Assembly (NCBI GenBank): GCA_024683775.1
Contig: GCA_024683775.1_4106.1
Reading direction: 5' to 3' (one strand)
Source of the DNA: a phage
Length of the DNA: 64,000 bases
The notes under the pieces are model-generated. The model made no database searches. It saw nothing but the letters and a program-made list of their open reading frames with translations, and was not told the origin of the DNA. This document shows, in pieces, positions 24,279-49,591 of the stretch. Position 1 is the first letter of the stretch. Each line of letters begins with the position of its first letter. The position numbers and the translations under genes were made by a program.

Positions 24279-24281
24279 ACA

Positions 24282-29143: not shown

Positions 29144-29161
29144 GATATGGGCTTTTTTTGT

Positions 29162-29190: not shown

Positions 29191-29215
29191 GTGTAATCAT
29201 TTTAAGGAGATACCT

Positions 29216-30396: not shown

Positions 30397-30397
30397 T

Positions 30398-30592: not shown

Positions 30593-30605
30593 GGTTGAGG
30601 CACAC

Positions 30606-31124
30606 ATGTATCAGGCCAAGTACAATACATCATATGCATTTGCACACAACATTTTGAAGATCATCAAAGCGTTAGAGGGTGGATTGCTTAGTCATAAGTA
30701 CACCAAAGTAGGTGACAATTGGTTCAGAAATGATGATGAGTTCAGAAGTCATAAGATTGTTTACAGCAATAATTACAGTGCTAATTACCTTCAGGATGTT
30801 GCTATGTGCTTCGAATACGTGTTACAGTTCAGGGGTTCCATCAGTCCTGAGCTAAGAGAACACATGTACATTCGATACCTACCAATGCTTAAGGATGAGA
30901 AAACAATATTCAATTCAGTACACCACAGAGTACGAGAGAGAACATTCAGGGATATTTTAGAAGATGAAGCTGCATATTTCCAGCAATCATTGATTGATGC
31001 TCCTGATGTGTTACAGATGCAGAATTTGTATAATGTATTAGATGCGAACATCGATACGGATATCTTTTTTTCCTTAAGTGATTATGAAACATTTTTGGAA
31101 GATTTAAAGGAAATAGGATTATGA
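30606..31124 (+). CDS. family B protein (172 aa)
   Basis: Motif EAAYFQQSLIDA; SD AAGGTTGAGG upstream; trimmed from track ORF 30486. Confidence 0.7.
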   Translation: MYQAKYNTSYAFAHNILKIIKALEGGLLSHKYTKVGDNWFRNDDEFRSHKIVYSNNYSANYLQDVAMCFEYVLQFRGSISPELREHMYIRYLPMLKDEKTIFNSVHHRVRERTFRDILEDEAAYFQQSLIDAPDVLQMQNLYNVLDANIDTDIFFSLSDYETFLEDLKEIGL

Positions 31125-31465
31125 GTAGATTTTCAGTTTATATAGTAAACGTCAGTAAAGATGGTAGTTTAATTGAATTTGATGTAGTTGATGACAATGA
31201 TAATTCATATGGTATTAAGGTACAGGACAATGATGTACAGTTCAGTACAAGGACAAATTTTGAGAATCCAGTCCAAGTTCCGAATTTCATAGAAGATGAA
31301 GCTGCACGATTCCAATACGAAACGGCCTTTGATAATTTAGCGATGCATATTATTATGCAACAAAGTTTAGTTCAATTGCTTCAGGTATTCAGACAAAATA
31401 TATATGTACATGAAGTGTCGATTAATGGCATTCAAAGTTCCGTTTTGTTCGGTACAAATATGTAA
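31121..31465 (+). CDS. family B protein (114 aa)
   Basis: Motif EAARFQYETAFD; ATGA overlap. Confidence 0.65.
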   Translation: MSRFSVYIVNVSKDGSLIEFDVVDDNDNSYGIKVQDNDVQFSTRTNFENPVQVPNFIEDEAARFQYETAFDNLAMHIIMQQSLVQLLQVFRQNIYVHEVSINGIQSSVLFGTNM

Positions 31466-31475
31466 GGAAAGTACA

Positions 31476-32030
31476 ATGAGTTCAATGAGTTTATTAGATA
31501 CATTAGAAAAAGACAGAAGTGCCATTAAGAGATTAAAAAATCTTGTCCAGAGCATTGCGAACAACGCTGAGAAGTTCAGTGACAATCTTAGTATAGGTGA
31601 TATAACCAGTACAGGAATAAAATCCCTGAAGTCAGATTTATTAATTCATAAGGAAGATAAATTATTATTTGTATTGAGTTCAGATTTAATGGTTGCAAGT
31701 AATGGTTTCAATTCGATATCAACACAAGATGGTAGCACAGGATTATATCTATCACAGGGTGTCCAGACGAACGAACAAAAGTGTTTTAGTTCAGGAGTAC
31801 AGAATCCCTTTAAGTTCAGTACAGAACAAGCCACAGAGCTTTTAGAGGCTTCAGAAGAGATGTTATTTCAGTACAAAACGGTTCATACAGATTTTGAATT
31901 ACGATGCATGTACGCTGTTAAGCATTATGTTCAGGAGTTCGAGAATTTAAGTTATCTTTTAGTTCGAACGAATACAAAGAACATTGGTGCATTAGAAGAT
32001 TACATTTCAAAAGTTGTTAAAGGGTGCTAA
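31476..32030 (+). CDS. family B protein (184 aa)
   Basis: Motif EEMLFQYKTVHT; SD TAAGGAAAG upstream; trimmed from track ORF 31404. Confidence 0.7.
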   Translation: MSSMSLLDTLEKDRSAIKRLKNLVQSIANNAEKFSDNLSIGDITSTGIKSLKSDLLIHKEDKLLFVLSSDLMVASNGFNSISTQDGSTGLYLSQGVQTNEQKCFSSGVQNPFKFSTEQATELLEASEEMLFQYKTVHTDFELRCMYAVKHYVQEFENLSYLLVRTNTKNIGALEDYISKVVKGC

Positions 32031-32193
32031 AGGGTGCTGATGAAAGAGTTATTTGAAGAACAGTTCGATACATATGTGGATAATATTCTTTATTCTAGCC
32101 GTGCTAGTCAACGAGGAAATCGTGCTTACAACATAGATTACCTATTAACGGTGCTGAGTTCACAGTACACCTACGCTGTGCAGAGGACATATT

Positions 32194-32397
32194 ATGGATA
32201 ATTTTAGAGATGTTGCAAAGGAGAAGTTCAAGTGCAGTTTAGATTACGGTTTAAATGATTTTCTTACATGCACAATGTACAGGAATGATGATTATGAGCA
32301 ATCCGTAATTTCGTTGCACAGATATTTCGAAATAATTTACGCAAGATATCTTAGAAGGTTAGATGGGATAGGGGATTGGAATTATGATTACGTTTGA
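32194..32397 (+). CDS. hypothetical protein (67 aa)
   Basis: ORF; no family motif. Confidence 0.5.
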   Translation: MDNFRDVAKEKFKCSLDYGLNDFLTCTMYRNDDYEQSVISLHRYFEIIYARYLRRLDGIGDWNYDYV

Positions 32398-32599
32398 AGA
32401 GCCGGAAGTGGTATATTGCTTTAGTGTGAAAGGTTTTGAATACATGATGGATTCGATTTTGAAGGATACATATTTGGTTCAGATTGCAGATGCAGATAAT
32501 GCAGTACAACGAGTATTGAATATATACGAGAAGACGAGTCGAAGGCTTTGTGCGATGAAAAGGATTGAAGAAATCAAGCTTTCTAGGCTGAATAAATAG
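32384..32599 (+). CDS. hypothetical protein (71 aa)
   Basis: ORF overlapping previous; no family motif. Confidence 0.5.
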   Translation: MITFEEPEVVYCFSVKGFEYMMDSILKDTYLVQIADADNAVQRVLNIYEKTSRRLCAMKRIEEIKLSRLNK

Positions 32600-32758
32600 A
32601 GACGTTTAGTTTTCACAGGCCGCAGGGGGGGTCAAAAAAATTTTCGCTGAAAAACATGTTAAGGTATATGTTTAATATAAAGTTTTAAAATGTGTTTTCA
32701 GAGTACAGTTCATGTTTCCTGAAACAAAAAATACCCCGCCGCAAACGTTCTCCTTATA

Positions 32759-33172
32759 TTGGAGTTTACCTTATTAATTACAGTAGAGATTATTATGGAA
32801 ATAAAATATAAAGAATTTTGTATAGGGACATGGATGTACACGGGTGAGTTGATTACGTGTTGTAATTTGTACAAAGGTGATTTAAACTACACAAGGGGCA
32901 AGGTTATAAAGTTCTGGAATTCACAATTTTATTTAATGGATCTTGGTACTGGATTTAGTTGTAAAGCAACCGATATGCTGGACTATACCTTAATGGATGA
33001 TGCTGCACTATTTCAGGAGTCATTAGTATTTGACAAGAAGTACATCTGTACATTAGAAGAGATTGTTGAAATCCAGCGTAGAATTAAATGCATTCACAGG
33101 GAATGTATAGATAAATGGTGTAAAACTGGTGAAACTAATTTTAGTAATCATTTCAATCTAGGGGAAGAGTGA
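32759..33172 (+). CDS. family B protein (about 137 aa)
   Basis: Motif DAALFQESLVFD; track start is TTG, first ATG at 32795; N-terminus aligns with paralog 33169 from the TTG. Confidence 0.6.
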   Translation: MEFTLLITVEIIMEIKYKEFCIGTWMYTGELITCCNLYKGDLNYTRGKVIKFWNSQFYLMDLGTGFSCKATDMLDYTLMDDAALFQESLVFDKKYICTLEEIVEIQRRIKCIHRECIDKWCKTGETNFSNHFNLGEE

Positions 33173-33525
33173 TGGAATTTGATTTTGTAATATCAGTACA
33201 TTCTTTTAAGAACAGTTTTCAGTACTTTTGTAATTTAAACAAAGGTGATTTGATGCACAGTGCAAATGAGTATATTCATTTCACTCAGGGTAAATTTACA
33301 TTCATTGATTACAATTCATTACAGTATCCGCATCAGGATATGCCGGATTATACAGTAATGGATGCCGCTGAACTATTTCAGGAGTCATTAGTATTTGATA
33401 AGAAGTACTTGTGTACATTTGAAGAAGTTATTGCAATACAAAATGAAATGAAAGAGTATGCTTCTTTGAATAAAGGCAATGTCAGTATTAATCAAGAATA
33501 CAAATTCAATATAGGAATTACATAA
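33169..33525 (+). CDS. family B protein (118 aa)
   Basis: Motif AAELFQESLVFD; ATGA overlap. Confidence 0.7.
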   Translation: MMEFDFVISVHSFKNSFQYFCNLNKGDLMHSANEYIHFTQGKFTFIDYNSLQYPHQDMPDYTVMDAAELFQESLVFDKKYLCTFEEVIAIQNEMKEYASLNKGNVSINQEYKFNIGIT

Positions 33526-33890
33526 TGACATATGATTATTCAATGTACGTTTGCAAGTCCAGAACGGGGTGGGATTTGTGCTGTAATCTTGTCAAGGGTG
33601 ATTCGGAACATGAGTTGAGTTTATATATTCAGTACTCGGATTTGTGTTTTAATTTCATTGATGTATTGCATGATGACTTCGACTATAACTCTGAAAGTAT
33701 TACAGATTATACAGTACTGGATGATGTTGAACTATTTCAAGCTTCTTTGGTGTTTGACAAGAATAAGTACTCATGTACAATAGAAGATATGATTTTTATA
33801 CAAAATGAAATGAAGAGATATGTTAAAGAAAACACCTTTGATACATCTACCACAACAACAAGTAACTATTATTTCAATGCAGGTAAGTAA
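33525..33890 (+). CDS. family B protein (121 aa)
   Basis: Motif DVELFQASLVFD. Confidence 0.7.
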   Translation: MTYDYSMYVCKSRTGWDLCCNLVKGDSEHELSLYIQYSDLCFNFIDVLHDDFDYNSESITDYTVLDDVELFQASLVFDKNKYSCTIEDMIFIQNEMKRYVKENTFDTSTTTTSNYYFNAGK

Positions 33891-33891
33891 T

Positions 33892-34236
33892 ATGGAATAT
33901 GATTTTTCTATGTTTATACCTAAGATTAGTACTTCACTGGAAGTGTATTGCAATCTTAACAAAGGTGATTATGAACACAAAATGGATCAGTACATTAAAT
34001 TTAATGGTTCTTACTTTAGCTTCATTGATTATCAGGCCAAAGGAACAGTTGTAGAAAATATGAAAGACTATACAACTGTACAGGGTGAGGCTGAAATATT
34101 TCAAGAGTCATTAATATTTGACAAGAAGTACTTGTGTACACTAGAGGAAGTCATTGAACTCCAACAGAAGATGAAAGAATATAGAAGAATCTGTATAGAG
34201 ACTGATTCCAAAGATAGGTATCGTTTTAAGATATGA
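33892..34236 (+). CDS. family B protein (114 aa)
   Basis: Motif EAEIFQESLIFD; trimmed from track ORF 33820. Confidence 0.7.
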   Translation: MEYDFSMFIPKISTSLEVYCNLNKGDYEHKMDQYIKFNGSYFSFIDYQAKGTVVENMKDYTTVQGEAEIFQESLIFDKKYLCTLEEVIELQQKMKEYRRICIETDSKDRYRFKI

Positions 34237-34418
34237 ATAAAAAAGAACAAATGGAATCATTCATGAATACAATACTTCGACGATTCGTAATTGATATTAG
34301 ACATAACAACAGCATTAGGAATGACATGTACTTCGGTACATATGATATTAGTGAATTGTATATAGCTAATATTCACATGGTTTACCGAGATTATATCAAG
34401 ACACAACACAGGAGTTGA
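34233..34418 (+). CDS. hypothetical protein (61 aa)
   Basis: ORF with ATGA overlap; possibly a divergent family A relative (MYFGTYD). Confidence 0.5.
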   Translation: MNKKEQMESFMNTILRRFVIDIRHNNSIRNDMYFGTYDISELYIANIHMVYRDYIKTQHRS

Positions 34419-34419
34419 T

Positions 34420-34890
34420 ATGAGTTTTGCAAGAGCATTAGAAATTGCTAAGTTAATTGATTTATGTAAAAAGGAAATAGTACTCAATCAACTCAATGGG
34501 TATCTATTCAAGGAAGGTAAAGCTTATTGTCGAATGATATACGATGACAGTAGTGAGTACATTCACATGTACGAAGAAAACTTAGATTCTTCTGAAACAA
34601 CACTCAATGGGTGTGATGTTAATCTGGAAGATAATTACATGTACTTCTGTCGTGATGCTGATATTTTAATACAAGATTCTGACATTATAACTGGTGCAGC
34701 AGAGCAACATCTCCCGTATTCAGTACTGGATAATGACTGGGGAAGTGAAGAGTTCTACTTCCAGCAGAATACTATCTACGAGGAATATGTGCTTGACAAG
34801 CTTGTCATTCTGTGGTACTTTAATAATACCGATTGTCCTAGCTTCTATCTGGACTTGGATCTACTACGAGTTATTAAAGAGGATATATGA
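34420..34890 (+). CDS. family B protein, MSxxSAL subgroup (156 aa)
   Basis: Motif SEEFYFQQNTIY followed by LVILWYFNN. Confidence 0.7.
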   Translation: MSFARALEIAKLIDLCKKEIVLNQLNGYLFKEGKAYCRMIYDDSSEYIHMYEENLDSSETTLNGCDVNLEDNYMYFCRDADILIQDSDIITGAAEQHLPYSVLDNDWGSEEFYFQQNTIYEEYVLDKLVILWYFNNTDCPSFYLDLDLLRVIKEDI

Positions 34891-35327
34891 GTTTAGCAAG
34901 TGCACTTAAACTGGCACACAAAATACATCACTTCCACGATAACATAAAAAGTGGTTTCTATGGTGATAAAGTAAGTGCATTTGGTAATGAGTATTATCTA
35001 TCAGGTATAAAGACATACTCTGATGATATTTTACTTATGGGCCATGATAAAGACAATACTATACAGTACTCTTCATGTAGTCAATATACTAGTTTTTTTG
35101 TATATATTCCAGGTACTAAGATTACTTTTGACACATCAAATACACCTGTTGACTTCGGGGTACTTGATGGGCCGTGGGGTACTGAAGAGTATTACTTCCA
35201 ACAGAGTCTTATTTTTAACCAAGAAATGCTTGATTCCTTGGTTGTTTTGTGGTACTTTAAGGAATTGAATTTTGAACCCTTCTTCCTTGACTGGGGAGCA
35301 TGTGAATATTTAAGTACAGGGGATTAG
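34887..35327 (+). CDS. family B protein, MSxxSAL subgroup (146 aa)
   Basis: Motif TEEYYFQQSLIF followed by LVVLWYFKE. Confidence 0.7.
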   Translation: MSLASALKLAHKIHHFHDNIKSGFYGDKVSAFGNEYYLSGIKTYSDDILLMGHDKDNTIQYSSCSQYTSFFVYIPGTKITFDTSNTPVDFGVLDGPWGTEEYYFQQSLIFNQEMLDSLVVLWYFKELNFEPFFLDWGACEYLSTGD

Positions 35328-35329
35328 TA

Positions 35330-35821
35330 ATGTCATTAGAAAGTGCATTGAAAGAAGCAAAGAAGATTCATGAGTACATGATTATGGTACAAGAAGGTTC
35401 AGTGCCTGGTGTGTATAAAACATCTGATACTGAATTTTTTGTAAAAGACCGCGACGATTATGATGAGTCAGAGATATGTGCAGAAACGTTAGTACTACAC
35501 ACTGATACGGGTGATACTGATGACTGTGAATATCATATGTACAATCAGTACATTAGTTATTGTAGAGATGAAGATATTATAATTTACAGCCCTGATTACG
35601 ATGATGATGACACAATCATTCCGTATTCAGTACTAGAAGGTCCGTGGGATAGTGAAGAATATTACTTCCAGAACAGTACTGTGTACAATGAAGAAGAATT
35701 AGATGTTATTGTAATTATGTGGTACTTTAAAAGTATTGGTTCTGATAGTTTCTATTTCGATTATGAATACGTAGAGAATACTGTAGGGGAAGATAATGTC
35801 ATTACAAAGTGCACTGGATAA
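35330..35821 (+). CDS. family B protein, MSxxSAL subgroup (163 aa)
   Basis: Motif SEEYYFQNSTVY followed by IVIMWYFKS. Confidence 0.7.
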   Translation: MSLESALKEAKKIHEYMIMVQEGSVPGVYKTSDTEFFVKDRDDYDESEICAETLVLHTDTGDTDDCEYHMYNQYISYCRDEDIIIYSPDYDDDDTIIPYSVLEGPWDSEEYYFQNSTVYNEEELDVIVIMWYFKSIGSDSFYFDYEYVENTVGEDNVITKCTG

Positions 35822-36239
35822 AGCAAAAGAACTACAGGTATATATTGAAGATATCAAGGCTGGGAAGTTCGAAGAAGTATACAAAGCCGAGAATGGTAAC
35901 TACTACAAGGATAGTGATTTTACCACAACTACAGTTATTCTTGGGCTGAATTCCAAAAGTCCCGCAGATTTTTCACAATACAATCCAGATGCAGAATTTA
36001 TCAGTTATGCTTATGGTGGTGAAATCCGTTTTTATAATCGCAGCAGACCTTTAAAATTGAACTTTGAAGTACTGAAAGGTCCGTGGGATAGTGAAGAGTA
36101 TTACTTTCAGAATAGTACTTTGTATGATGATGAAGTACTAGATACTTTAGTTATTATGTGGTACTTTAAAAGTATTGATAGTACAAGATTTTATTTGGAT
36201 TATGAATATGTACGTGAAGCATATAAGGGCAAACGATGA
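35796..36239 (+). CDS. family B protein, MSxxSAL subgroup (147 aa)
   Basis: Motif SEEYYFQNSTLY followed by LVIMWYFKS. Confidence 0.7.
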   Translation: MSLQSALDKAKELQVYIEDIKAGKFEEVYKAENGNYYKDSDFTTTTVILGLNSKSPADFSQYNPDAEFISYAYGGEIRFYNRSRPLKLNFEVLKGPWDSEEYYFQNSTLYDDEVLDTLVIMWYFKSIDSTRFYLDYEYVREAYKGKR

Positions 36240-36550
36240 AATTCTTATACAGTATTCAGTACATTCCTGGTACAATTAGTTTAATGTATTTCTTCGATCA
36301 TGATAATTTCCAGCACCTTGCCGTTAGAAGATGTAATGAATCTTTAATGATTGAATATCTTCACGATTGTGATTATATTCCTGACTTCCTTGAATGTGAT
36401 TATAGAGATGATCATGAAACATTTCTTTTTCAGGAATCACTTGTATGGGATAAGAGAATTAATTTTCATGCCTTAATTGAGATACAAAAACAAGTGAAGT
36501 ACTACTGGGATTACTTAATTACCCAAGAATATATAGAGATTGAAATATAA
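36236..36550 (+). CDS. family B protein (104 aa)
   Basis: Motif ETFLFQESLVWD; ATGA overlap. Confidence 0.7.
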   Translation: MKFLYSIQYIPGTISLMYFFDHDNFQHLAVRRCNESLMIEYLHDCDYIPDFLECDYRDDHETFLFQESLVWDKRINFHALIEIQKQVKYYWDYLITQEYIEIEI

Positions 36551-37023
36551 TGTACGAAAGTGATCTTAAGCACGCTGAAGAATTAGTTAATATAGTAAAG
36601 TTCTTTCAAAATAATGTAAAGTACTTAGACTATAAAGGGGCATATATTAGTACTATAAGTGTTGGAACAGATATACTAGGATTAGGTAATGAATATAAGT
36701 ACGAGTCCCATGATTATGATTTGGAATTCAAGTACTTCGTATGGGATTCTGGAACTTTCTATTATATAGAGGAAGGTGGAAAATATTTTGAATTCACAGA
36801 AGAAGAAGTACTATTTTTAAATTCAGAAGATGCTTACTTCCAGTACAGTACTATATACCCAAATAGTGCATTAAGAGCTTTGGTAGTTTTTAATGCATTC
36901 CTGAAAGAGAACTTTAATAATTCTATATTCATTGATTTAGATTATGTATATGAACTAAATCAGGTGATATATATGGAGTCCAGAAAAAATGAGTTACGAA
37001 AGTGCAATCAAGAAAGCAAATGA
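36550..37023 (+). CDS. family B protein (157 aa)
   Basis: Motif EDAYFQYSTIYP. Confidence 0.7.
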   Translation: MYESDLKHAEELVNIVKFFQNNVKYLDYKGAYISTISVGTDILGLGNEYKYESHDYDLEFKYFVWDSGTFYYIEEGGKYFEFTEEEVLFLNSEDAYFQYSTIYPNSALRALVVFNAFLKENFNNSIFIDLDYVYELNQVIYMESRKNELRKCNQESK

Positions 37024-37435
37024 TATTCTAAAAGTTGTTAAGTTCTTCAAAGAAAATCCTGAATACGTAGATGATGAACGCAGAGAAGTTTCTAATGGTA
37101 CGAAGATTACAATTGATTCTTTATTTGACACTAGCAACAACAACTGTAGTACTATTGAATTAGCATACGATTATATTTCATTGAACAGAAAATATGATGA
37201 AGTTACGATAGAGCGTCATGAGAATGAAGAATCTTTTAAAATTTCTGATATTTTATCTCTGAGTACAGAAGAAGGGTACTTCCAGGGAAGTACTGTTTTT
37301 AATGAAGGAACACTAGACAATCTATGTACATTTAGTGTACTATATCAGAAGTCAGTACTGGATATATTTTATCTAGACACTGAAAAACTTGATAGGTTAG
37401 TTGATTTCGTTACTATAGAAGAGGCATCCGTTTGA
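36989..37435 (+). CDS. family B protein (148 aa)
   Basis: Motif EEGYFQGSTVFN; overlaps previous gene by 35 nt. Confidence 0.65.
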   Translation: MSYESAIKKANDILKVVKFFKENPEYVDDERREVSNGTKITIDSLFDTSNNNCSTIELAYDYISLNRKYDEVTIERHENEESFKISDILSLSTEEGYFQGSTVFNEGTLDNLCTFSVLYQKSVLDIFYLDTEKLDRLVDFVTIEEASV

Positions 37436-37968
37436 GAAAAATTAACATTAATGATTACAATGCATTACAAGATTTATCAAAAAAGATTCGCACTATCGTA
37501 CCAGTACTGAAAAAATGCAGTACTGGATTAATTGATCCTAGTACTGTTGTTAATGAGAAGTACAATTTTCATTATGTATTACAGGGTACTGGGGCATTCC
37601 AGAAGTGTGAGGTGCGTGAGAAACACGTAATTGATACATCATTGTTTTCTATTGGTGCACCTATGTCGAATAATACTATTTTCCTGGATGACGCAGGAAA
37701 TATTCAACAATTAACATTTAAGAAAAGGAAAAAGAACAATAACATTGGTGTGTACGCGATGAAGTGGGGTCAACCTGATTTGAAGCGTGAAATTCACATC
37801 CCTAAGTACAATTACAATTCATTTGAAGAACAGTGCTTTCAACTATCTTGTACTGACCCTGACTATGCTATCATTCAGTTCTATATGGAATTGCAGATTG
37901 CATTTAACAGTAATTTGTATATTAACTTATTGGCGATGAACATCGATGAAGTATTCAAAAACATTTAA
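37432..37968 (+). CDS. family B protein (178 aa)
   Basis: Motif EEQCFQLSCTDP; ATGA-type overlap. Confidence 0.65.
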   Translation: MRKININDYNALQDLSKKIRTIVPVLKKCSTGLIDPSTVVNEKYNFHYVLQGTGAFQKCEVREKHVIDTSLFSIGAPMSNNTIFLDDAGNIQQLTFKKRKKNNNIGVYAMKWGQPDLKREIHIPKYNYNSFEEQCFQLSCTDPDYAIIQFYMELQIAFNSNLYINLLAMNIDEVFKNI

Positions 37969-38164
37969 TCGAATTGAATACATGAGAACTGTGAGTGCAG
38001 TGTGGGACATATGGTTCACTACTAAACCAAAAATGGATTACCATGACTTTAAGCTATTGTTCTTCGTTGGCTCTAACAAACAGGATGTTGCAATGAAGGG
38101 TTATATTCAGCACTTACAGGAACTAATCCAGAAGAGAATATATGAAAATAATAGACCAAGATGA
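37946..38164 (+). CDS. family A-like small protein (72 aa)
   Basis: Motif VGSNKQDVAMKGYI; inside array B. Confidence 0.65.
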   Translation: MKYSKTFNRIEYMRTVSAVWDIWFTTKPKMDYHDFKLLFFVGSNKQDVAMKGYIQHLQELIQKRIYENNRPR

Positions 38165-38333
38165 TATTGCTAAACTATTCAATATATATTCTTCTAAAAT
38201 GATGCAAACCGACTCATATAGTACTGAATTCAAAGAATTAAAAGTACTGATGTATTTGGGCACACAGTATCAGGAACAAGTTGTTAAAGAATATATTGAT
38301 TCTTTACAGAAGGATATCCGTTATGTACAATGA
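38142..38333 (+). CDS. family A small protein (63 aa)
   Basis: Motif LGTQYQEQVVKEYI; inside array B. Confidence 0.7.
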   Translation: MKIIDQDDIAKLFNIYSSKMMQTDSYSTEFKELKVLMYLGTQYQEQVVKEYIDSLQKDIRYVQ

Positions 38334-38877
38334 ACTTGACTTGGCATTTGAGCGTGTAAAAATCTTCATTGAAACTTATATTATGCATGAAACTATACTG
38401 AAAACAAAAGGAATATGGTTCACTGATAAATTTCTTACTATGGCTATGAGAGGTGGAATGAAACATCTGTACTGCACAGATAATTCAAGAATTTCAGTAC
38501 TGAATTATGATGAAAGTGTAGCATCCAGTACCAGTTTAATTTCTACATACAATGATAATGTTATTAGTATTATGTGCAATATGAATGTCCCATCTATTTC
38601 TGTATATAAAAACTGTGATAGTTCATTGGAGTACAAGATTGAGCAGTACTTATATCCTAACACAGAAGAAAACATCTTTCAAAATAGTCTTATGTGGGAT
38701 GATACATCTACTAAGTGCATATATCTTTATAATAAATTAAAAGAGTACATTGTTGATAGTTCAATTAGTACTGCTGTATTCAGTGTTACTGTTTTTAATG
38801 ATAATCGTGAAGATATGAGTTATTACAGAGACATTGTAAGAATACATGCAATGTATAAGGATCTACTATGTTATTAA
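38323..38877 (+). CDS. family B protein (184 aa)
   Basis: Motif EENIFQNSLMWD; trimmed from TTG-start track ORF 38281. Confidence 0.65.
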   Translation: MYNELDLAFERVKIFIETYIMHETILKTKGIWFTDKFLTMAMRGGMKHLYCTDNSRISVLNYDESVASSTSLISTYNDNVISIMCNMNVPSISVYKNCDSSLEYKIEQYLYPNTEENIFQNSLMWDDTSTKCIYLYNKLKEYIVDSSISTAVFSVTVFNDNREDMSYYRDIVRIHAMYKDLLCY

Positions 38878-39470
38878 ATGCAAATAAATGTTGTAGTACT
38901 GAGGTTCATTTGTATTTTAAGAAATTAGTAAATGATATTATCTATATGCAAGAAATCATTTATCACAAAAGAATGGACTTAGAAAAAGCATTAGTTCAGT
39001 TCTCTTTTAATCTCGATGGTGATATATCGTTAGATGGTGATGGATTGCGTATAGCATTTGACGGTAATACAAATAGGGTTTTCTTTTGGATAGATAATAA
39101 ATTATGTTCATCAATATGTCGTACTTTTTATAACCCTATTTCGGACTTATATCAATTGGTGTATTCTAAAGGTGCAGTAGAAGCATCATACGGTGATAGC
39201 TTTGCACTAGGAAAGAGTATCCCATATATGCAATCATTTGATATTGAATTAGTCAGTACTGATGAAGATGCGATGTTCACAAATGATATAACAATGCAGC
39301 GTGAATCTGCAATGAGATATATTACAAATTCTATGCATACATTCTTCGAAAGAACAGAATTTGATAATGTGTATATAGCAAATGTAAATATTTTTACTGA
39401 CCTTTGTCAGTTCTTGAGAAGTATTTTTGATTTCGATGAAAGCTATTGTAAGCTTTATACTGAGGTTTAA
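38868..39470 (+). CDS. hypothetical protein (200 aa), possibly divergent family B
   Basis: ORF in array; motif weak. Confidence 0.55.
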   Translation: MLLNANKCCSTEVHLYFKKLVNDIIYMQEIIYHKRMDLEKALVQFSFNLDGDISLDGDGLRIAFDGNTNRVFFWIDNKLCSSICRTFYNPISDLYQLVYSKGAVEASYGDSFALGKSIPYMQSFDIELVSTDEDAMFTNDITMQRESAMRYITNSMHTFFERTEFDNVYIANVNIFTDLCQFLRSIFDFDESYCKLYTEV

Positions 39471-39475
39471 ATGCC

Positions 39476-39835
39476 ATGAATACCATTAGTATTACGTACT
39501 ACACAACGAAAAAATACGTTTGTTGTTTACTTTCGTTAAAGACAAATGATGATATGTTTGAAATGGCGGCATATACATTAGAATTATCAGAAGATGGTTT
39601 TCAATGTCATGAAGCGTACTCAAATACACGTGAAGATACAATTGATACTACGCTAATGCAAGAAGATGAGTTATTTCAAGAAAGTTTAGTATGGGATAAA
39701 AAATACTATTGTGATTTTGATTTTCTTTGTTTAATCCAGAAAGAAATGAAAAGGATCTTCGACAATTATCCGGTGAAGAGATTGAGTACTAAGCCGGAGC
39801 AGTACAGGAGAATTTTATTCCGTTATGAAGACTGA
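39476..39835 (+). CDS. family B protein (119 aa)
   Basis: Motif EDELFQESLVWD. Confidence 0.7.
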   Translation: MNTISITYYTTKKYVCCLLSLKTNDDMFEMAAYTLELSEDGFQCHEAYSNTREDTIDTTLMQEDELFQESLVWDKKYYCDFDFLCLIQKEMKRIFDNYPVKRLSTKPEQYRRILFRYED

Positions 39836-40163
39836 ATTAGTAAAAATAATGTACGCAACTCACACTAAGTTATTATTGGTTAAAATGAATTATAACAGAA
39901 AACATAATGAATTCTGTACATTAATCCGAAATGAGGAATCATTTACATTGCGTACCAATGATAAGCCAATGCTAACTATAAATGATTTTTCATGTTTAGA
40001 TACAGGTGAATTGTTCCAGGAGTCATTAGTACTGGATAGTAGTATACATTTGGAAATTGAAGTACTACAACAGTACCAGATACTTTTGAATCGTATTATG
40101 GAAAATTATCCATGTGAAGTTGGTGGACCAATGCAATTCAAATCAAAGATGTATGAACTATGA
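39825..40163 (+). CDS. family B protein (112 aa)
   Basis: Motif TGELFQESLVLD. Confidence 0.7.
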   Translation: MKTELVKIMYATHTKLLLVKMNYNRKHNEFCTLIRNEESFTLRTNDKPMLTINDFSCLDTGELFQESLVLDSSIHLEIEVLQQYQILLNRIMENYPCEVGGPMQFKSKMYEL

Positions 40164-40170
40164 GGTTAGT

Positions 40171-40704
40171 ATGTTAGATAAAATAAAGAACGAGGGAACT
40201 CTATACAATCATCTTAAGTTGGATACGTTCGAGGCAGCAATCAGTACTGCACAAGATATAATTGATATTATCAAGTACATTAAAGAAAATAAGTTAAAAT
40301 GTGTGAAAACGCCAGAACGTACAATATACAAAGATGACGACCTTCACGTATCAGTTGTTAAGCCAAAAGATAAGGATGGTAATAGAGATTTCTATAATAA
40401 CAGTGGACAGTATGAATGTGAATATGATCCCGAATTTAGAGGTGGATTCATGTGCTTCAGTAAAACAGATACTTCACATGTTGAGATACGTACATTAAAA
40501 GGTCTAGGTAGATTTGAGTTCATGGATATAGAACTAAATGAAGAAAACTACTTCCAACAATCATTACTTAACACTGAATACAATTTAGGTGTACTATTCA
40601 TGTACAAGTACTTATATGAGCACTTAAATGAAGACTTCTATCTGGACTTAGAAGATTACCATTTAGTATGGAAAGAAATGGTAGAACTTCGTGAGAACTA
40701 TTGA
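40171..40704 (+). CDS. family B protein (177 aa)
   Basis: Motif EENYFQQSLLNT; trimmed from track ORF 40114. Confidence 0.65.
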   Translation: MLDKIKNEGTLYNHLKLDTFEAAISTAQDIIDIIKYIKENKLKCVKTPERTIYKDDDLHVSVVKPKDKDGNRDFYNNSGQYECEYDPEFRGGFMCFSKTDTSHVEIRTLKGLGRFEFMDIELNEENYFQQSLLNTEYNLGVLFMYKYLYEHLNEDFYLDLEDYHLVWKEMVELRENY

Positions 40705-40730
40705 CACCCTCCAAATCTTTGTGATATAAT
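40701..40730 (+). promoter_or_regulatory. sigma70-like promoter (TTGACA-18-TATAAT)
   Basis: Hexamers read directly upstream of CDS 40764. Confidence 0.55.
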
Positions 40731-40763
40731 CTCTTTATATTAATTGTAAAGGGTTATATCACT

Positions 40764-41243
40764 ATGTCCAAAGACCTATCATTTAGCAATGCACAAAAAA
40801 TCGCACAAAATATCATTAAACTTCATAAGTTCTTTGTAACAGTTAAAGAGAATATAATTCTCCCACGATGCACACTTTATGCGTACAAAAATTATTTGTC
40901 AATGAATAGCAATTTGTTGCATACTACAGATGAGAATTTCTGTGGTATTCGTGTACTTGACGATGCACCATCAGGGGATTTTATCTCATATTGTTTCCAT
41001 ACATCTGATAGTTTTAAGTACTATCATCCTAGATCTAATGATGATGATGAATATGACACATTTAATGTTAGATCAGAAGAAGAATTCTTCCAGTACAGTA
41101 CTTTGTACAATGAGAGAATCGTGTTTAGTTCTACAATTTTTACAGTACTTAAAGATGAACTCAATGACGCAAATGATAGATTCTATATGGATTTAAACTT
41201 CGTAGATGAAATCATTGAGTACATGGAGAAAAATGGTCTATGA
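40764..41243 (+). CDS. family B protein, MSxxSAL-like subgroup (159 aa)
   Basis: Motif EEEFFQYSTLYN. Confidence 0.7.
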   Translation: MSKDLSFSNAQKIAQNIIKLHKFFVTVKENIILPRCTLYAYKNYLSMNSNLLHTTDENFCGIRVLDDAPSGDFISYCFHTSDSFKYYHPRSNDDDEYDTFNVRSEEEFFQYSTLYNERIVFSSTIFTVLKDELNDANDRFYMDLNFVDEIIEYMEKNGL

Positions 41244-41722
41244 TTACAACAGAATATGATTACGATGGTGTTTTAGAATTTGCATCTAACATTCATCGCA
41301 TTGCAAAGGAGTTCAGAAGTCCCCAACCTTTCGGTGGAATGCCTTTTGGTGGAATGTTCCAATATGACCAATTCAGTTCAACCAAAGGAAGACTTGCCTT
41401 TAAAAATAATAAGGGCAATCAAGTATATGCTGAGTTCTTTGACGATAATGACTTTCACTACAGAGCTGAATATATTTCATATTGCCAAGGGTCTGATTTG
41501 AAGATTAACATTGATACATTTAGAGATTCAGTGTTTATCCCTTATAGTGAGTTAGTTTTCATGACAGAAGAAATGTACTTCCAAGGGTCTTGTATTCATG
41601 ATGCAAAAGTACTTAATGCTATATTACTTTATGGTGCACTACTTCATCATTACAAATACAAACAACGATTCTTTATAGATTTAGTTGTATACCATCAATG
41701 CGTGGATTATTTGAATGCATAA
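41240..41722 (+). CDS. family B protein (160 aa)
   Basis: Motif EEMYFQGSCIHD; ATGA overlap. Confidence 0.7.
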   Translation: MITTEYDYDGVLEFASNIHRIAKEFRSPQPFGGMPFGGMFQYDQFSSTKGRLAFKNNKGNQVYAEFFDDNDFHYRAEYISYCQGSDLKINIDTFRDSVFIPYSELVFMTEEMYFQGSCIHDAKVLNAILLYGALLHHYKYKQRFFIDLVVYHQCVDYLNA

Positions 41723-42077
41723 TACAACAACAATTCAGTACATGACGGATGGCAATGATTGCTTTGCTTCAAGATATGAATTCATCAAGAACCATTTCGT
41801 AACCTATATCCCTGAATATAATCAGTTTTATCTACAGATTTACCAAAATGATTCATATATGAATGAGATATATTCTGAAATAAAAATCCCTGATTATAGT
41901 ACTTTATCAGAAGAGGAATTGTTTCAGGAGAGCACTGTCAATACTGAAGATGTGTACGAACTAATGGAATACCAGAAGGTACTTAAATATTTCCATGAAG
42001 TTCAGGATATACAAATGGATAGTGTTAAAACGTGGAATTATAACACATACGAGGTAAATTATGTTCGAAATGATTAA
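41715..42077 (+). CDS. family B protein (120 aa)
   Basis: Motif EEELFQESTVNT. Confidence 0.7.
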   Translation: MHNTTTIQYMTDGNDCFASRYEFIKNHFVTYIPEYNQFYLQIYQNDSYMNEIYSEIKIPDYSTLSEEELFQESTVNTEDVYELMEYQKVLKYFHEVQDIQMDSVKTWNYNTYEVNYVRND

Positions 42078-42474
42078 AATTATGCAACGATGCATTGTTG
42101 ACCAACATGGAATATATGGATATAGTTTAAGTGCAGCTATTGACAAAAACAAAACAACATATGTAAGCTATAATGCAGTACTTGGATTTGATATATTCAT
42201 TAATGCCAACAATAAAATCAAACAAGCCAAGGATGTATCTATAATGACCCCTGATGAGCTATTTCAGTACAGCTTAGTTCTGCCGGGCTGTATTGATTTA
42301 CAACGTCTAGGAGCTATACAGAAGGTTTTACGCGAACATAAAGTACAACCAAATAAAATCACACACATTCCAGAAACATTCTACAAACCCATAGAAGTAG
42401 AAACACCTGATTATATGTTAAGTGATGATGAGTTCTACGAGAAACACTTCCCTGGTAAAGTTTGGAGAGACTAA
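42061..42474 (+). CDS. family B protein (137 aa)
   Basis: Motif PDELFQYSLVLP. Confidence 0.7.
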   Translation: MFEMIKIMQRCIVDQHGIYGYSLSAAIDKNKTTYVSYNAVLGFDIFINANNKIKQAKDVSIMTPDELFQYSLVLPGCIDLQRLGAIQKVLREHKVQPNKITHIPETFYKPIEVETPDYMLSDDEFYEKHFPGKVWRD

Positions 42475-42956
42475 TGAACCGAAAGTACAGAGAAACTATG
42501 AAGTTCGCTAAGGAGTGTTTAGAGACAATTGATTTCATTTTCGATAACAAAGACTCATTGGGCCGTCACTTCGTAATTACAAAGAAAGAAGATAAGAGAT
42601 ACAAGTGTCAACGATTAGGATACAGTATTGAGTTCTCCTTAATGATTGATGGCATGATAAACTCCTTATATGAATGTGGTAAGACTTATTACATTTCATT
42701 TAGATCTTGGAGTGAACGTGTCATGTTCTTGACTCCAAATGGAGTTGTATATCCTTTTCTTGATGATTTATCAGAAGAAAGTTACTTTCAAAATAGTTTA
42801 ATTTACACAGAAAAAGAACTCAAAATGCTATTCATTATGTCGTACTTTAAAAAGTACTGCAAATTTAAATCATTAGCTTTTGAGATTTCTGCAATGAAAG
42901 TATTCATTAAAAATGTAAAAGAATTAAAGAGGATTTACGATGTACATAGAAAATGA
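42462..42956 (+). CDS. family B protein (164 aa)
   Basis: Motif EESYFQNSLIYT followed by LFIMSYFKK. Confidence 0.7.
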   Translation: MERLMNRKYRETMKFAKECLETIDFIFDNKDSLGRHFVITKKEDKRYKCQRLGYSIEFSLMIDGMINSLYECGKTYYISFRSWSERVMFLTPNGVVYPFLDDLSEESYFQNSLIYTEKELKMLFIMSYFKKYCKFKSLAFEISAMKVFIKNVKELKRIYDVHRK

Positions 42957-43482
42957 TAATGTAAAATGCATTTCCGACATTTGTATAAAATTAATGAAAA
43001 TTTTCATTAACCCAAAATACAAGACTCGTTCATTACGTCATGACATTGATGAACATTGTGTAATTACTATTCTAGGTAATATGCTTGATGTAAAGTACGA
43101 TGGTAAATTGTTATTCGGTGTCCGAGAAGAGAAGATAGATGATGTCTTCTTTTCTCCTAAAGATAAGTTTGAACCTTCTGATTATAAAGTAATTATTCGT
43201 GATGATAGTATCTACATTAGCAGTGATCATTCAAATTACGTCGAACAGATATACACTGAAAATGTTGACTACAACCATGAACTACTAGATTTACCAACAT
43301 CAGACATAGATATGGAGAGAATCAAATTTTCATTATCAAATAATGAGTACTTAGGTATACAAACATATTATGCACTTCAGGGAAAGATTCCACCTGCGAT
43401 GTATATAAGAATTGAGATTGGTAATGTATTCAATGACAAGGTTATATCAATTGCTGATAAAATATTGAAGGTACAATTATGA
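42940..43482 (+). CDS. hypothetical protein (180 aa)
   Basis: ORF in array; no family motif recognised. Confidence 0.55.
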   Translation: MYIENDNVKCISDICIKLMKIFINPKYKTRSLRHDIDEHCVITILGNMLDVKYDGKLLFGVREEKIDDVFFSPKDKFEPSDYKVIIRDDSIYISSDHSNYVEQIYTENVDYNHELLDLPTSDIDMERIKFSLSNNEYLGIQTYYALQGKIPPAMYIRIEIGNVFNDKVISIADKILKVQL

Positions 43483-44036
43483 ATTTTACTAATTATAATT
43501 TACATAGACTTGAATTACGTCATTGTATTGCATTTGCAAAAACATTAATGTGCATCATTGATACACTATCATCTAAAACTTTTCGAAAGGATAATGATTT
43601 ATGCCTTAAAAAAGGTAAAGTACAAAAATACGATTATACAGATGAAACGTATTTTGATATCTTTTTGGGAACAAATGATAGTACAAGAGTAGGATGTTTG
43701 GGAACAGTTGGAACACATTGCTTTACATGGAATCCAAATTCAAGTACAGTACGAATTGACACCAACGATACATGTTATGCTGACCTTAGTACTGAATCTG
43801 ATTTAGAATCAGTTATGTTCCAACACATGTTAATTCATAAACCAAATGAAATTCTTTATCTTGTTGCTTTTAGTTATCTCTTACAAAATTATAAATCAGG
43901 TTTTACTATTGAAACTGATATCGATGAGATTATGGATGAGATTCCTAGTTTAAAAGATATTCTTGAAGAAAAAGATTTCTATCAGGACTTTAGAGATTTA
44001 TACAACATGCACAGGGAGTTATCTGATAATGAATAA
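43479..44036 (+). CDS. family B protein (185 aa)
   Basis: Motif ESVMFQHMLIHK; ATGA overlap. Confidence 0.65.
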   Translation: MNFTNYNLHRLELRHCIAFAKTLMCIIDTLSSKTFRKDNDLCLKKGKVQKYDYTDETYFDIFLGTNDSTRVGCLGTVGTHCFTWNPNSSTVRIDTNDTCYADLSTESDLESVMFQHMLIHKPNEILYLVAFSYLLQNYKSGFTIETDIDEIMDEIPSLKDILEEKDFYQDFRDLYNMHRELSDNE

Positions 44037-44547
44037 AGATGATATTCTAATCAGACTAATCAACAGTCTGTTAAAATTCGTGAATAGTGATAGCGATACA
44101 CACAATGTAGGTGACATTGAATTCAAATCATTTGGAATGTACGGTGAGGACAAAACATATTATGCATCAATGAAATTCCAAGATTATTATGAAATGTTAA
44201 TTGCGTTAACATACGAAGATGTGGACCCAAGATGGAGTTCCAGTATTTCTCTGTCGAGAATGGTAATTCGTAGTAAACATCGTTACATTTCGTCAAAGAA
44301 TACTCCTAATTTGTTTGATATTGTTTTGAATGAAAATACCAACCCCCCATCTAAACATGATATCGTACCTTTAACTGATGAAGTACAGTTTCAATTGAGT
44401 ACCATTTGTGATGAAGATGTGATATCATGTATGAAAATTTACGAGAAGATTGGTAGTGATATCCCTAAGAACTATTACATAACAATAGATGGAACGTACC
44501 TCCGAGATGAGGCTCTAGCGTACATTGACAGCGTTTTACCAAAATAA
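44029..44547 (+). CDS. family B protein (172 aa)
   Basis: Motif DEVQFQLSTICD; trimmed from track ORF 43963. Confidence 0.65.
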   Translation: MNKDDILIRLINSLLKFVNSDSDTHNVGDIEFKSFGMYGEDKTYYASMKFQDYYEMLIALTYEDVDPRWSSSISLSRMVIRSKHRYISSKNTPNLFDIVLNENTNPPSKHDIVPLTDEVQFQLSTICDEDVISCMKIYEKIGSDIPKNYYITIDGTYLRDEALAYIDSVLPK

Positions 44548-44568
44548 AGACCCTTATGGGTCTTTTTG
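44548..44568 (+). terminator. rho-independent terminator
   Basis: Hairpin AGACCC-TTAT-GGGTCT followed by TTTTT. Confidence 0.75.
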
Positions 44569-44578
44569 TGTTTAGTGC

Positions 44579-44607
44579 TTTACATGAGCATTCAGGTGTG
44601 TTATAAT
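44579..44607 (+). promoter_or_regulatory. sigma70-like promoter (TTTACA-17-TATAAT)
   Basis: Hexamers read directly; SD ACAGGAGAAG follows before CDS 44635. Confidence 0.6.
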
Positions 44608-44634
44608 CGCTTTTAACAGAGTACAGGAGAAGAT

Positions 44635-45198
44635 ATGAGTACTGAATTAATTAAAGAAATCACATTGTTGGTAAAGCATTGTTTTAAGTTCATTGATGAT
44701 AATGGTTCACGCCAGTACATTAAAGTTAATGAGAAATATAACATTAACGTCCTAAAGAATGAAACCGTTAACAGTTATGCAAACATTGAGTTAGATGTTG
44801 AGGACAAATACACAGCATTACACATCATTTCGTCCGGCGATAGAAAACAAGATTATCGTTCTACATTTTATGATGATAGTGTTACTGTTGGTTATAAATT
44901 TCATAAAAATAAAATTGCTTATAAGAATACATACACACATGAAGTAATTGAAGAGTACAATTATAAAATTAAAAAAGACGAGTACGATGTACTTTTATTC
45001 AATGCGAATCTCATACACAACGCTGGTACTGTTCGCAATCTTATGTTAGCATATGAAATTCCAAAGATTATAGAAAGAAATGAATTGATAATCTTTAAAA
45101 CTATATTAAAATTCAGTACAGAAGAATTAGAAGATCTAGTACTGGCTCTTAAGACGTTCATCAATGAACATGTACCTGTTAAATTAGAGGACTTATAA
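44635..45198 (+). CDS. hypothetical protein (187 aa)
   Basis: ORF with promoter and SD; no family motif recognised. Confidence 0.65.
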   Translation: MSTELIKEITLLVKHCFKFIDDNGSRQYIKVNEKYNINVLKNETVNSYANIELDVEDKYTALHIISSGDRKQDYRSTFYDDSVTVGYKFHKNKIAYKNTYTHEVIEEYNYKIKKDEYDVLLFNANLIHNAGTVRNLMLAYEIPKIIERNELIIFKTILKFSTEELEDLVLALKTFINEHVPVKLEDL

Positions 45199-45782
45199 TG
45201 CAAGCTGAACACATTCAAATTATGAAATTGATGCATGACATTGCAGAACTATCTGAAAAGCACAACATTACTGAACATGAGCCTATTGGAAATTATCGTC
45301 TTAAAGTTGAATGCAAATCACCATATCGTTTTGGTTCAGTAGTACTGGAGTCTTATAAAGTTTACGATTATGGAACGACAAAAAAAGGTTCATGGGATAC
45401 TATGGCAATGTATATCCGTACATCAAGGCATAGTGAGCGAATTGGTTCCATTACTCCAAACATGATATTTGTCAATGCTTTACACGAAGATATTAATCGA
45501 ATTGTTGAATCTAATTTTGATGACGTAGAGAATGATACATATTTGGAAATTCCACCAGAACTAGATCAAAGTGAAGACATTCGTGAAGCATACATTTTCC
45601 AGAGATCAGTACTTGACAACTTCAAGGAGTTTGAGTACATGATGCTTTGCTATGAAACTGCAAAAGCTATTGACACTGGTGAATTGGTAATGTATAGTAA
45701 GTTCATTAACTGTGAATCCGATACATTAAAAGAGCTACACACGGCAATCAAAAACATCAAGGATACATATGAACGCTTATAG
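45198..45782 (+). CDS. family B protein (194 aa)
   Basis: Motif EAYIFQRSVLDN. Confidence 0.65.
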   Translation: MQAEHIQIMKLMHDIAELSEKHNITEHEPIGNYRLKVECKSPYRFGSVVLESYKVYDYGTTKKGSWDTMAMYIRTSRHSERIGSITPNMIFVNALHEDINRIVESNFDDVENDTYLEIPPELDQSEDIREAYIFQRSVLDNFKEFEYMMLCYETAKAIDTGELVMYSKFINCESDTLKELHTAIKNIKDTYERL

Positions 45783-46347
45783 TTATATGACAGCCCGACA
45801 CCAACAGCTATATGATATCAGTACAAAGATGCTACACATTGTTGGTAGTGCCAAAGAAATTAACAAACATTACCTCATTCGTGATGTGTCATTTTCATCT
45901 AAATGTTTGTCCAAAGAATATTACGATCACGGTATTCTTACTATTTCTGGTGCCAGGAATATTTGTATTGTAAAAAATAATAGTAAAAGTAATGAAGAGT
46001 GCGAGATTAGATCCGATATCCAAATTAATGATGATGGAAGTTTTTCACACCATCCATTTCATATTAGTACTGTTGGTGTTTTATATAATATTAAAGTACT
46101 ATTCGGTGATAAAGAGTATGAGTTAAAAGCTATCAATCCAGAATCAAGTACAGTTGATGAAGAACTGTTTCAGATGAGCACCGTTATACCTGAAGAGGTT
46201 CTTAGTACTGTTGTTTTTTGTAGTTTAATTTATCACACATACAAAAAGAACCAGTTCGATTTCCACATTTTAGGAACGTACATCTTCAATACTTTGAATG
46301 TTGATCGTTTAAAAGCATTAAATGCAGCAATGGATAAGGTGCTATAA
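45769..46347 (+). CDS. family B protein (192 aa)
   Basis: Motif DEELFQMSTVIP. Confidence 0.7.
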   Translation: MNAYSYMTARHQQLYDISTKMLHIVGSAKEINKHYLIRDVSFSSKCLSKEYYDHGILTISGARNICIVKNNSKSNEECEIRSDIQINDDGSFSHHPFHISTVGVLYNIKVLFGDKEYELKAINPESSTVDEELFQMSTVIPEEVLSTVVFCSLIYHTYKKNQFDFHILGTYIFNTLNVDRLKALNAAMDKVL

Positions 46348-46775
46348 TGACAAGAGATGAATGCTTATACATATGGGATATAATTGAAACTACACTTTCA
46401 AATCCAGAAAATTATAAAACAAAAAAAAGACAACGACACAAAATATGGATAGATTTGTTCGTTGAGGGCATACACGCAGTGACTATTTGGGATTCACCGA
46501 GGGCATCATCATCTACTCTGTTGGACAATGAATGCATTGATTGCATTAATTCCAATTTTCATCTCCACGGTACTACATATTTCGGCACATTTCTGGATAT
46601 TGAAAGTAAAGATGATATTGATTCACTTGCTTTACAATACGGAGTACTGTATGATACTAAATTAATTTACGATTTAGTACTAGCTTCTTATGTGTATAAA
46701 TTAATGATGAAATACAATCACATTTCTGTATCAGTTTATACTAAGGATATTCTTTCATTAAGAGACAAAACATGA
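46347..46775 (+). CDS. hypothetical protein (142 aa), possibly divergent family B
   Basis: ORF; weak motif DSLALQYGVLYD. Confidence 0.55.
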   Translation: MTRDECLYIWDIIETTLSNPENYKTKKRQRHKIWIDLFVEGIHAVTIWDSPRASSSTLLDNECIDCINSNFHLHGTTYFGTFLDIESKDDIDSLALQYGVLYDTKLIYDLVLASYVYKLMMKYNHISVSVYTKDILSLRDKT

Positions 46776-47278
46776 GTTTATTAAATGCACGAGAATTAGT
46801 TGAGATGTATGAGATCTTATCTTCATATAAAAATTCCCCAAAAGATGTAATTCTAAACAAAAAGTTCCATGTCAGTGTTGAACATATAACAAATATAGAT
46901 ATGATTTCTTTGGTGGAAAGTAATAAGTCAGGTCTGGAGCGTGATATCATGCGTTTGATTTATATTCCTAAACCATCATATACTAATGATAGTACTATTA
47001 GCAATGAGACATTCATGTATAGTCCTGGTACGGATTCTACTATAGTATCGCTGTCAAATAAATCAATGGATACTTTCCAATTCATCTATACCAGTACTGA
47101 TAACATTGAAGAAAATGAATTCCAAAACAATACATTAAGTTCATGTAGTAGTGTTATAACCTTTATGTCATATCTGTGGTCAATCAAATCAAATGCAATT
47201 GTATATAGTTCTAATTACACACAAGATAGTATTGTTGAATCATTTAAAGTTCTAAAGGAATACTATGAAAATAACTAA
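46772..47278 (+). CDS. family B protein (168 aa)
   Basis: Motif EENEFQNNTLSS; ATGA overlap. Confidence 0.65.
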   Translation: MSLLNARELVEMYEILSSYKNSPKDVILNKKFHVSVEHITNIDMISLVESNKSGLERDIMRLIYIPKPSYTNDSTISNETFMYSPGTDSTIVSLSNKSMDTFQFIYTSTDNIEENEFQNNTLSSCSSVITFMSYLWSIKSNAIVYSSNYTQDSIVESFKVLKEYYENN

Positions 47279-47846: not shown

Positions 47847-47857
47847 CGGAGAACTAC

Positions 47858-49582: not shown

Positions 49583-49591
49583 GAATGAATA

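Follow-up and report, generated by a model that had tools for sequence, protein, structure and literature searches.

Gln-specific viral proteases have well-described recognition sites. The NIa protease of tobacco etch virus (TEV; peptidase C4) acts on the site ENLYFQ followed by G or S, with a specificity for Glu at P6, a hydrophobic residue at P4, Tyr at P3, Gln at P1 and a small residue at P1', P5 and P2 being free (P and P' positions are numbered throughout relative to a cut, actual or would-be, after the Gln at P1). Human rhinovirus 3C protease (HRV-3C, PreScission) recognises LEVLFQ followed by GP, the Gly-Pro being needed after the Gln. The substrate segments that proteases bind are extended, and prohead proteases of the gp21 type cut after Glu, not Gln. 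A different kind of system is formed by the lineage-specific multigene families of large viruses. Such a family consists of tens of paralogues of a small domain, arranged in tandem near a genome end and diverging quickly, and combines a conserved core with a variable remainder and an unknown or host-interaction function. Jumbo phages also carry paralogous families of head proteins that are processed by a prohead protease, according to the passage of PMC7247149 that cites Thomas et al. 2012. The phage DNA considered here, a stretch of 64,000 nucleotides from contig GCA_024683775.1_4106.1 (the window), encodes a tandem family of small proteins, termed family B, which share the 12-residue motif [ST]-E-E-x-[YF]-F-Q-x-S-[TL]-[ILV]-[YH]. 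The sequence-only reading of the window noticed the likeness of this motif to 3C and TEV sites, took it most simply as a conserved structural element, and set against this a shared processing or targeting site, in which case the members of the array would be protease substrates. We consider it likely that the string marks a short alpha-helix with a capped N-terminus, which together with the hydrophobic stretch that follows it forms a fold-defining core that is not cut there, that the resemblance of the string to TEV and 3C sites is a coincidence of this helix signature, and that Rak2-like jumbo phages have in family B a lineage-specific multigene family whose products are small, mostly acidic and not part of the virion.

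By sequence comparison, the window is Asteriusvirus jumbo coliphage DNA. The 12-kb stretch around the motif genes is 98.7% identical to Escherichia phage fEgEco12 (PP777464.1) and its identity to 35 other records is 84-98%; these are without exception jumbo phages of E. coli or Salmonella (310-386 kb) and include the Asteriusvirus phages PBECO4, 121Q, SP27 and phAPEC6. Virtually all open reading frames (ORFs) of the window are small and lie on the + strand, with a G+C content of 31-40%, and no tRNAs were found in it. Family B and a second tandem family, family A, were delimited by all-vs-all phmmer comparison of the window ORFs (Table 1). This gave 29 members of family B, which rose to 37 after one iteration with a profile hidden Markov model (HMM), and about 10 more ORFs carry the motif without reaching the HMM threshold. 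The sequence-only reading had placed the motif array at 36989-41722; family and motif are indeed found there, but they extend well beyond it, from 23584 to 51838 and again at 62921. Adjacent paralogues, profile similarity and purifying selection are all present, as in lineage-specific tandem multigene families. The genes of the array are closely packed, 59 of 66 junctions overlapping or lying at most 15 nt apart, and their products are acidic, with a median isoelectric point (pI) of 4.8 and 39 of 46 proteins below pI 6.

Table 1. Position of family B genes, their TEV-like strings and family A in the window.
Feature	Coordinates	Strand	Remarks and basis
Main family B tandem array	23584..51838	+	about 46 genes encoding 103-214 aa; scattered among them, a few of family A and small unrelated ORFs
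Family B gene with TEV-like string, 148 aa	36989..37435	+	HMM E=2.8e-26; phrog_12674 2e-39
EEGYFQGS (P6 to P2'), residues 94-101 of the 36989 gene	37268..37291	+	six-frame motif scan
Short-form family B gene, 119 aa, motif EDELFQESLV	39476..39835	+	AlphaFold2, hhalign
Family B gene with TEV-like string, 160 aa; structure-prediction target	41240..41722	+	ORF listing
EEMYFQGS (P6 to P2'), residues 110-117 of the 41240 gene	41567..41590	+	six-frame motif scan; AlphaFold2 helix
Outlying motif-bearing member (MSEEEHFQLMMM)	62921..63610	+	phmmer cluster with 47265-47846 and 47858-48409; motif listing
Family A, second tandem family	17653..23594		31 paralogues of ~65-95 aa (about 70 aa)
Family A, further coordinates	24282..24497, 25430..25880, 37946..38333		

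Motif statistics were compiled for the 47 window members and for 170 family sequences, in both cases anchored on FQ, hence Phe at P2 and Gln at P1 are fixed by construction (47/47 in the window). The features that the sequence-only reading had described recur across the window members: Glu at P6 in 36 of the 47, Tyr (14) or Phe (6) at P3 ahead of the Phe-Gln, where Leu is found in another 14, and Ser at P2' rather than P1' in 36. Glu also occupies P5 in 30 members, and P1' is variable (Glu 11, Tyr 10, Leu 7, Gly only 2), while the residues further on are Leu or Thr at P3', Val, Ile or Leu at P4', an aromatic residue or His at P5', and Asp at P6' in 21. Among the 170 sequences, Glu is found at P6 in 132 and at P5 in 133, Gln at P1 in 170 and Ser at P2' in 149; P3 is Tyr in 75, Leu in 26 and Phe in 20, and P1' is Tyr in 45, Leu in 27, Gln in 22 and Asn in 21, with Gly in 11, Ser in 1, and Gly, Ser, Ala and Cys together in 15. 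The corresponding entropies, in bits, are 2.59 at P7, 1.30 at P6, 1.28 at P5, 3.80 at P4, 2.67 at P3, 0 at P2 and P1, 3.14 at P1', 0.90 at P2', 1.43 at P3' and 1.96 at P4'. Conservation in this set extends at least six residues beyond the would-be scissile bond, and the two most variable positions, P4 and P1', are spaced i, i+4.

Two structural models carry the reading of the motif as a helix. AlphaFold2 prediction for the 41240 protein, from an alignment of 22 long-form paralogues, reached a mean predicted local distance difference test score (pLDDT) of 81.5 and a predicted template modelling score (pTM) of 0.77. From the N- to the C-terminus, the model has a helix at residues 8-25, a low-confidence linker, six strands (50-100), helices at 110-117 and 122-137, a strand at 144-147 and a helix at 148-159, and EEMYFQGS is exactly helix 110-117, the most confidently predicted part of this model, with a pLDDT of ~94 over the block. 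The short-form 39476 protein was modelled from a separate alignment of 15 short forms (pLDDT 71.9); here, EDELFQESLV makes up helix 63-72, and the block 61-70 has a pLDDT of 96, the highest in that model. The architecture predicted in common for long and short forms runs from a beta-meander through the motif helix to a long helix, and hhalign comparison of the two forms gave a probability of 92.7% over 31 columns centred on the motif. Because the two models agree and conservation follows helical spacing, the motif is read as a helix, confidently predicted and not a strand; together with selection at the amino-acid level, this supports the conserved structural element that the sequence-only reading had put first.

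The sequence [ST]-E-E is a typical helix N-terminal cap. In the fold proposed here, the Ser or Thr at P7 and the Glu-Glu pair at P6 and P5 would cap and stabilise the N-terminus of the helix, the P3 aromatic and the invariant P2 Phe would pack into the core, the Gln at P1 and the Ser at P2' would close the helix, and [TL][ILV][YH] would lead into the next structural element. Both the Phe and the Gln may be buried in the core. The N-terminal helix, the variable linker and the beta-meander, which surround this fixed core, would be free to diverge between paralogues. A reading of F-Q-x-S-T as an 'STS' motif of the ADP-ribosyltransferase type was rejected, as the order of motifs is wrong, the segment is predicted to be helical and no ADP-ribosyltransferase fold was matched.

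The family B genes are real and are constrained by purifying selection at the amino-acid level. Compared with the phAPEC6 orthologues, the ratio of nonsynonymous to synonymous substitution rates (dN/dS) is 0.27 overall (6,711 codons), and it is 0.16 in the motif (P8-P6') versus 0.28 elsewhere, with synonymous rates (dS) of 0.72 and 0.63, respectively. The codons used at the motif are mixed, TTT 26 and TTC 20 for the Phe, CAA 20 and CAG 26 for the Gln, and TCN 18 and AGY 18 for the Ser. Conservation of a recombination or regulatory sequence at the DNA level was rejected as the cause of the motif on account of this mixture of synonymous codons and the similarity of dS inside and outside it. Identity to the phAPEC6 orthologues is as low as 40% and as high as 95%, and an orthologue is missing for two genes, which indicates that the array turns over quickly.

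The likeness to the TEV site consists of Glu at P6, Tyr at P3, Phe at P2 and Gln at P1, and goes furthest in EEGYFQGS and EEMYFQGS; both of these near-literal matches exist as the sequence-only reading had reported, the positions it gave for them (36989 and 41240) being ORF starts rather than motif positions. Were a 3C/TEV-like or other Gln-specific endopeptidase, encoded by phage or host, to cut after the Gln, a C-terminal fragment of about 50 residues would be freed, and the TEV core is in part recovered among the 170 sequences, with Glu at P6 in 132 and Gln at P1 in all, but Tyr at P3 in only 75. Short forms with E-E-L-F-Q likewise resemble the rhinovirus 3C site, sharing Glu at P5 or P4, Leu at P3, Phe at P2 and Gln at P1. 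Seven members match E..Y.Q[GS] literally, but 4.1 such matches are expected from independent positional frequencies (n=170): the motif is conserved to a degree far exceeding chance, but the existence of two literal TEV members is not beyond it. A six-frame scan of the window for E..[YF].Q[GS] gave four occurrences, each on the + strand and within a family B gene. Unlike in the TEV site, P1' is Gly or Ser in only 12 of 170 family B sequences and bulky in most members, and the pattern of constraint is the reverse of that of TEV, P4 being the most variable position and P5 and P2 being fixed. Conservation also runs well past P1', and instead of an accessible extended segment the motif forms a predicted helix, in both models, that continues into S-[TL]-[ILV]-[YH]. 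The rhinovirus 3C site differs by its Gly-Pro at P1'-P2', which family B does not have, since Ser prevails at P2' (149/170) and the residues listed for that position do not include Pro. Further differences lie in the helical context and in the lack of a 3C-like enzyme among the proteins searched.

The search for such an enzyme was run on the related genome fEgEco12, whose annotation was walked whole, every product named protease or peptidase being classified. These comprise g207, a ClpP (PF00574, 1e-41), and the weakly ClpP-like g214, the HslV-like g216 and g518 (PHROG 1040), g414, which matches the PHROG family 'ATP-dependent protease', and g348, a T4 gp21-like S77 prohead protease (PF03420, 8e-21), while the 'peptidase' g432 (269481-270170) instead matches an Rv2179c-like 3'-5' exoribonuclease. 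No peptidase Pfam family was matched in a concatenated scan of 41 hypothetical proteins of 180-412 aa, a scan that did not include proteins below 180 or above 500 aa. Neither among the annotated proteases nor among these 41 proteins was a 3C-like or chymotrypsin-like protease (C3, C4, S1) found, and fEgEco12 yielded no chymotrypsin-fold cysteine protease cognate to a TEV-type site. A tblastn search of 50,697 phage records with a TEV protease sequence also gave no match, and E. coli is not known to have a cytoplasmic Gln-specific endopeptidase. As regards the proteins themselves, published virion tables do not contain them: the phAPEC6 array genes gp404c-gp466c are absent from the 62-protein virion proteome (PMC7247149 Table 1) and RaK2 ORF363-430 from the virion mass spectrometry table (PMC3622015 Table S3). 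With P1' rarely small, P4 variable, no 3C-like protease found in the related genome and the array absent from virions, cleavage of the family after its Gln appears very improbable, and the array of protease substrates that the sequence-only reading had envisaged is not supported.

Absence from virions likewise bears on the idea that the motif is a capsid-targeting or prohead-processing signal, as in the internal proteins of T4 or the inner-body families of phiKZ. The inner-body and head families of phiKZ, served by the prohead protease gp175, are paralogues in a jumbo phage as family B is, and the related genome does encode a gp21-like S77 protease; the phiKZ families, however, are true protease substrates, virion proteins cut at S/A/G-X-E, whereas the conserved residue of family B is a Gln in a predicted helix. 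The motif is internal rather than N-terminal, and the preference of gp21-type enzymes for Glu does not fit it. The missing array members in both virion proteomes largely refute such a signal, which we regard as even less probable than cleavage by a Gln-specific enzyme.

Two side observations concern the proteases and TEV-like strings of fEgEco12. Its compartmentalised protease set (g207, g214, g216, g327, g414 and g518) consists of the ClpP, the ClpP-like protein, the two HslV-like proteins, an annotated Clp ATPase and the accessory 'ATP-dependent protease' protein. Outside family B, g587 (337862-339052, - strand), one of several paralogous genes annotated as chromosome-condensation regulator or DNA condensation protein, contains the literal TEV consensus ENLYTQS, and proteins annotated like it occur in the phAPEC6 virion proteome; by a rough estimate, one match of the ENLYTQS type per such genome is about what chance would give.

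Several points weigh against the helix-signature reading. Burial of the Phe and Gln is itself an inference. The polar E-E, Q and S are nearly invariant in sequences that otherwise share only 20-30% identity, a degree of constraint beyond what structure alone usually demands, and may thus point to a functional surface. Confident alignment of the long and short subfamilies is limited to the 31 motif-centred columns. The protease scans covered the annotated proteases of the phage and 41 of its hypothetical proteins of 180-412 aa, and the proteomic evidence covers virions, so that the evidence against cleavage is indirect.

The near-invariance of the polar residues, held across 170 sequences and two phage genera, is also what would be expected if the helix presented a conserved acidic-aromatic surface (E, E, Y/F, F, Q, S) to one shared partner, a phage or host protein or a ligand, with no cleavage involved, and if the variable sheet and linker bound different targets, so that the paralogues acted as modular adaptors or decoys. 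In profile comparison, long and short subfamilies are connected through the motif alone, which also has the lowest dN/dS, and the phage-encoded Clp/HslV-type machinery with its 'ATP-dependent protease' accessory protein could be the shared partner. Against such docking stand the hydrophobic [TL][ILV][YH] after the helix, which is core-like rather than surface-like, and rare members with Met or Lys in place of the Gln. We consider it possible, if rather doubtful, and it is in this non-proteolytic form that the targeting half of the processing-or-targeting proposal is retained, the cleavage half having been set aside. A more specific and distinctly unlikely version would make family B the phage counterpart of the adaptors of eukaryotic viruses (F-box/PRANC, BTB-kelch): the helix [ST]EEx[YF]FQxS would dock all paralogues onto one machine, the phage Clp/HslV-type apparatus or a central host factor, while the hypervariable linker and sheet of each of the ~60 paralogues would pick out a different host target, a defence protein for example, to be sequestered or destroyed.

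The reading of family B as a lineage-specific family around a fixed helical core is consistent with its distribution. An HMM derived from the window found 51 members in fEgEco12 (336 kb examined), 39 of them in the array on the left and 12 scattered. These scattered members, at least 12, lie at 119601-119981, 275547-296000, 317243-317815 and 331600-332250, far from the main array and among the small hypothetical genes of the right-hand region. In rare members the Gln is replaced and the rest of the motif kept, by Met in EEEEFMYSTVID and by Lys in EEGAFKYSLLY (these occur in fEgEco12 g606, 350834-351493, and in representative P0098). Klebsiella phage RaK2 (JQ513383.1, Alcyoneusvirus) has 22 HMM matches and 5 motif-only ORFs within 40 kb, from ORF363 to ORF430 (245-271 kb), two of them with EEGYFQGS, and because it has the same array and motif, family B is taken to be older than the split between Asteriusvirus and Alcyoneusvirus. 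Nearly 10% of RaK2 gene products were reported to be paralogues, the families not being described (PMC3622015). Copy number is about 60 per genome, and family B makes up roughly one tenth of the genes in Asteriusvirus and RaK2-like jumbo phages. When 1.84 billion representative proteins were searched with a profile, 127 matched, all of 55-208 aa, of which 124 have the full motif and 97 are less than 45% identical to the three Asteriusvirus sequences examined or align with them only over a short length; the clusters sampled come from phage-sized contigs (~350-360 kb) or named Asteriusvirus genomes.

Structural and annotation resources do not connect the family to anything characterised. In a Foldseek comparison with the BFVD viral models, every match was an uncharacterised protein of a Rak2-like phage, from SP27, 121Q and RaK2 and, more weakly, from GAP32, fHe-Yen9-03 and Serratia BF, and a word-indexed homologue search found only close relatives in Escherichia and Salmonella phages, without Pfam domains. 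No match was obtained by tblastn with the HMM consensus sequence or with representative P0024, by Pfam, NCBIfam and PADLOC scans of 10 family B members, or by PDB sequence-profile searches, so that family B, unlike the known multigene families of large viruses that it otherwise resembles, is without a Pfam, NCBIfam, PADLOC or PDB counterpart for its fold and motif. Window members do match PHROG 12674, 9317, 13866, 15629, 34017, 34636, 30978 and 33987 (E 1e-37 to 1e-116), all of them of 'unknown function'; PHROGs breaks the superfamily up into these separate, unlinked entries and has no record that they share a motif and an origin. No paper on family B or its motif turned up in literature searches, and every gene in the counterpart region of fEgEco12 is annotated 'hypothetical protein'. 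Two other 'hypothetical' genes of fEgEco12 can be named, g182 (68297-69439) as a T4 Rnl1-like RNA ligase and g249 (106768-108006) as carrying the domain of RlaP, an RNA-repair nucleotidyltransferase.

The arrays lie beside the genome terminus. In fEgEco12, the direct terminal repeats are 20,993 bp long (PMC13070987) and the paralogue arrays start ~100 bp inside the left terminal-repeat boundary, where family A begins; several family A proteins have T-[ND]-F-Q at around residue 50. In phage CBB, a gene-dense region by the repeat was suggested to be early (PMC5259590), and by analogy with that repeat-adjacent region family B, read here as a set of rapidly diversifying and probably cytoplasmic proteins, is plausibly expressed early and plausibly engaged in host takeover or counter-defence, possibly through diversified binding. 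A scan for sigma70-like promoters gave 112 matches versus 108 in the shuffled expectation, which is not above chance; the seven best matches (11/12) in 16000-35999, at 16221, 21858, 24494, 27671, 29162, 30534 and 33754, are all on the coding (+) strand.

A protease-substrate array, if true, would imply a 3C-like processing system in a phage. On the practical side, TEV protease could cut members that contain EEGYFQGS or EEMYFQGS if these are expressed with a TEV-cleavable tag and become partly unfolded. What emerges beside the terminal repeat is a superfamily with a fold new to description and a 12-residue signature, which databases split into unrelated 'hypothetical' families. Its recognition as one family provides a handle for annotation and a mutational target in the Phe-Gln pair, and makes family B a candidate gene set for host takeover or counter-defence in phages that are under development for therapy.

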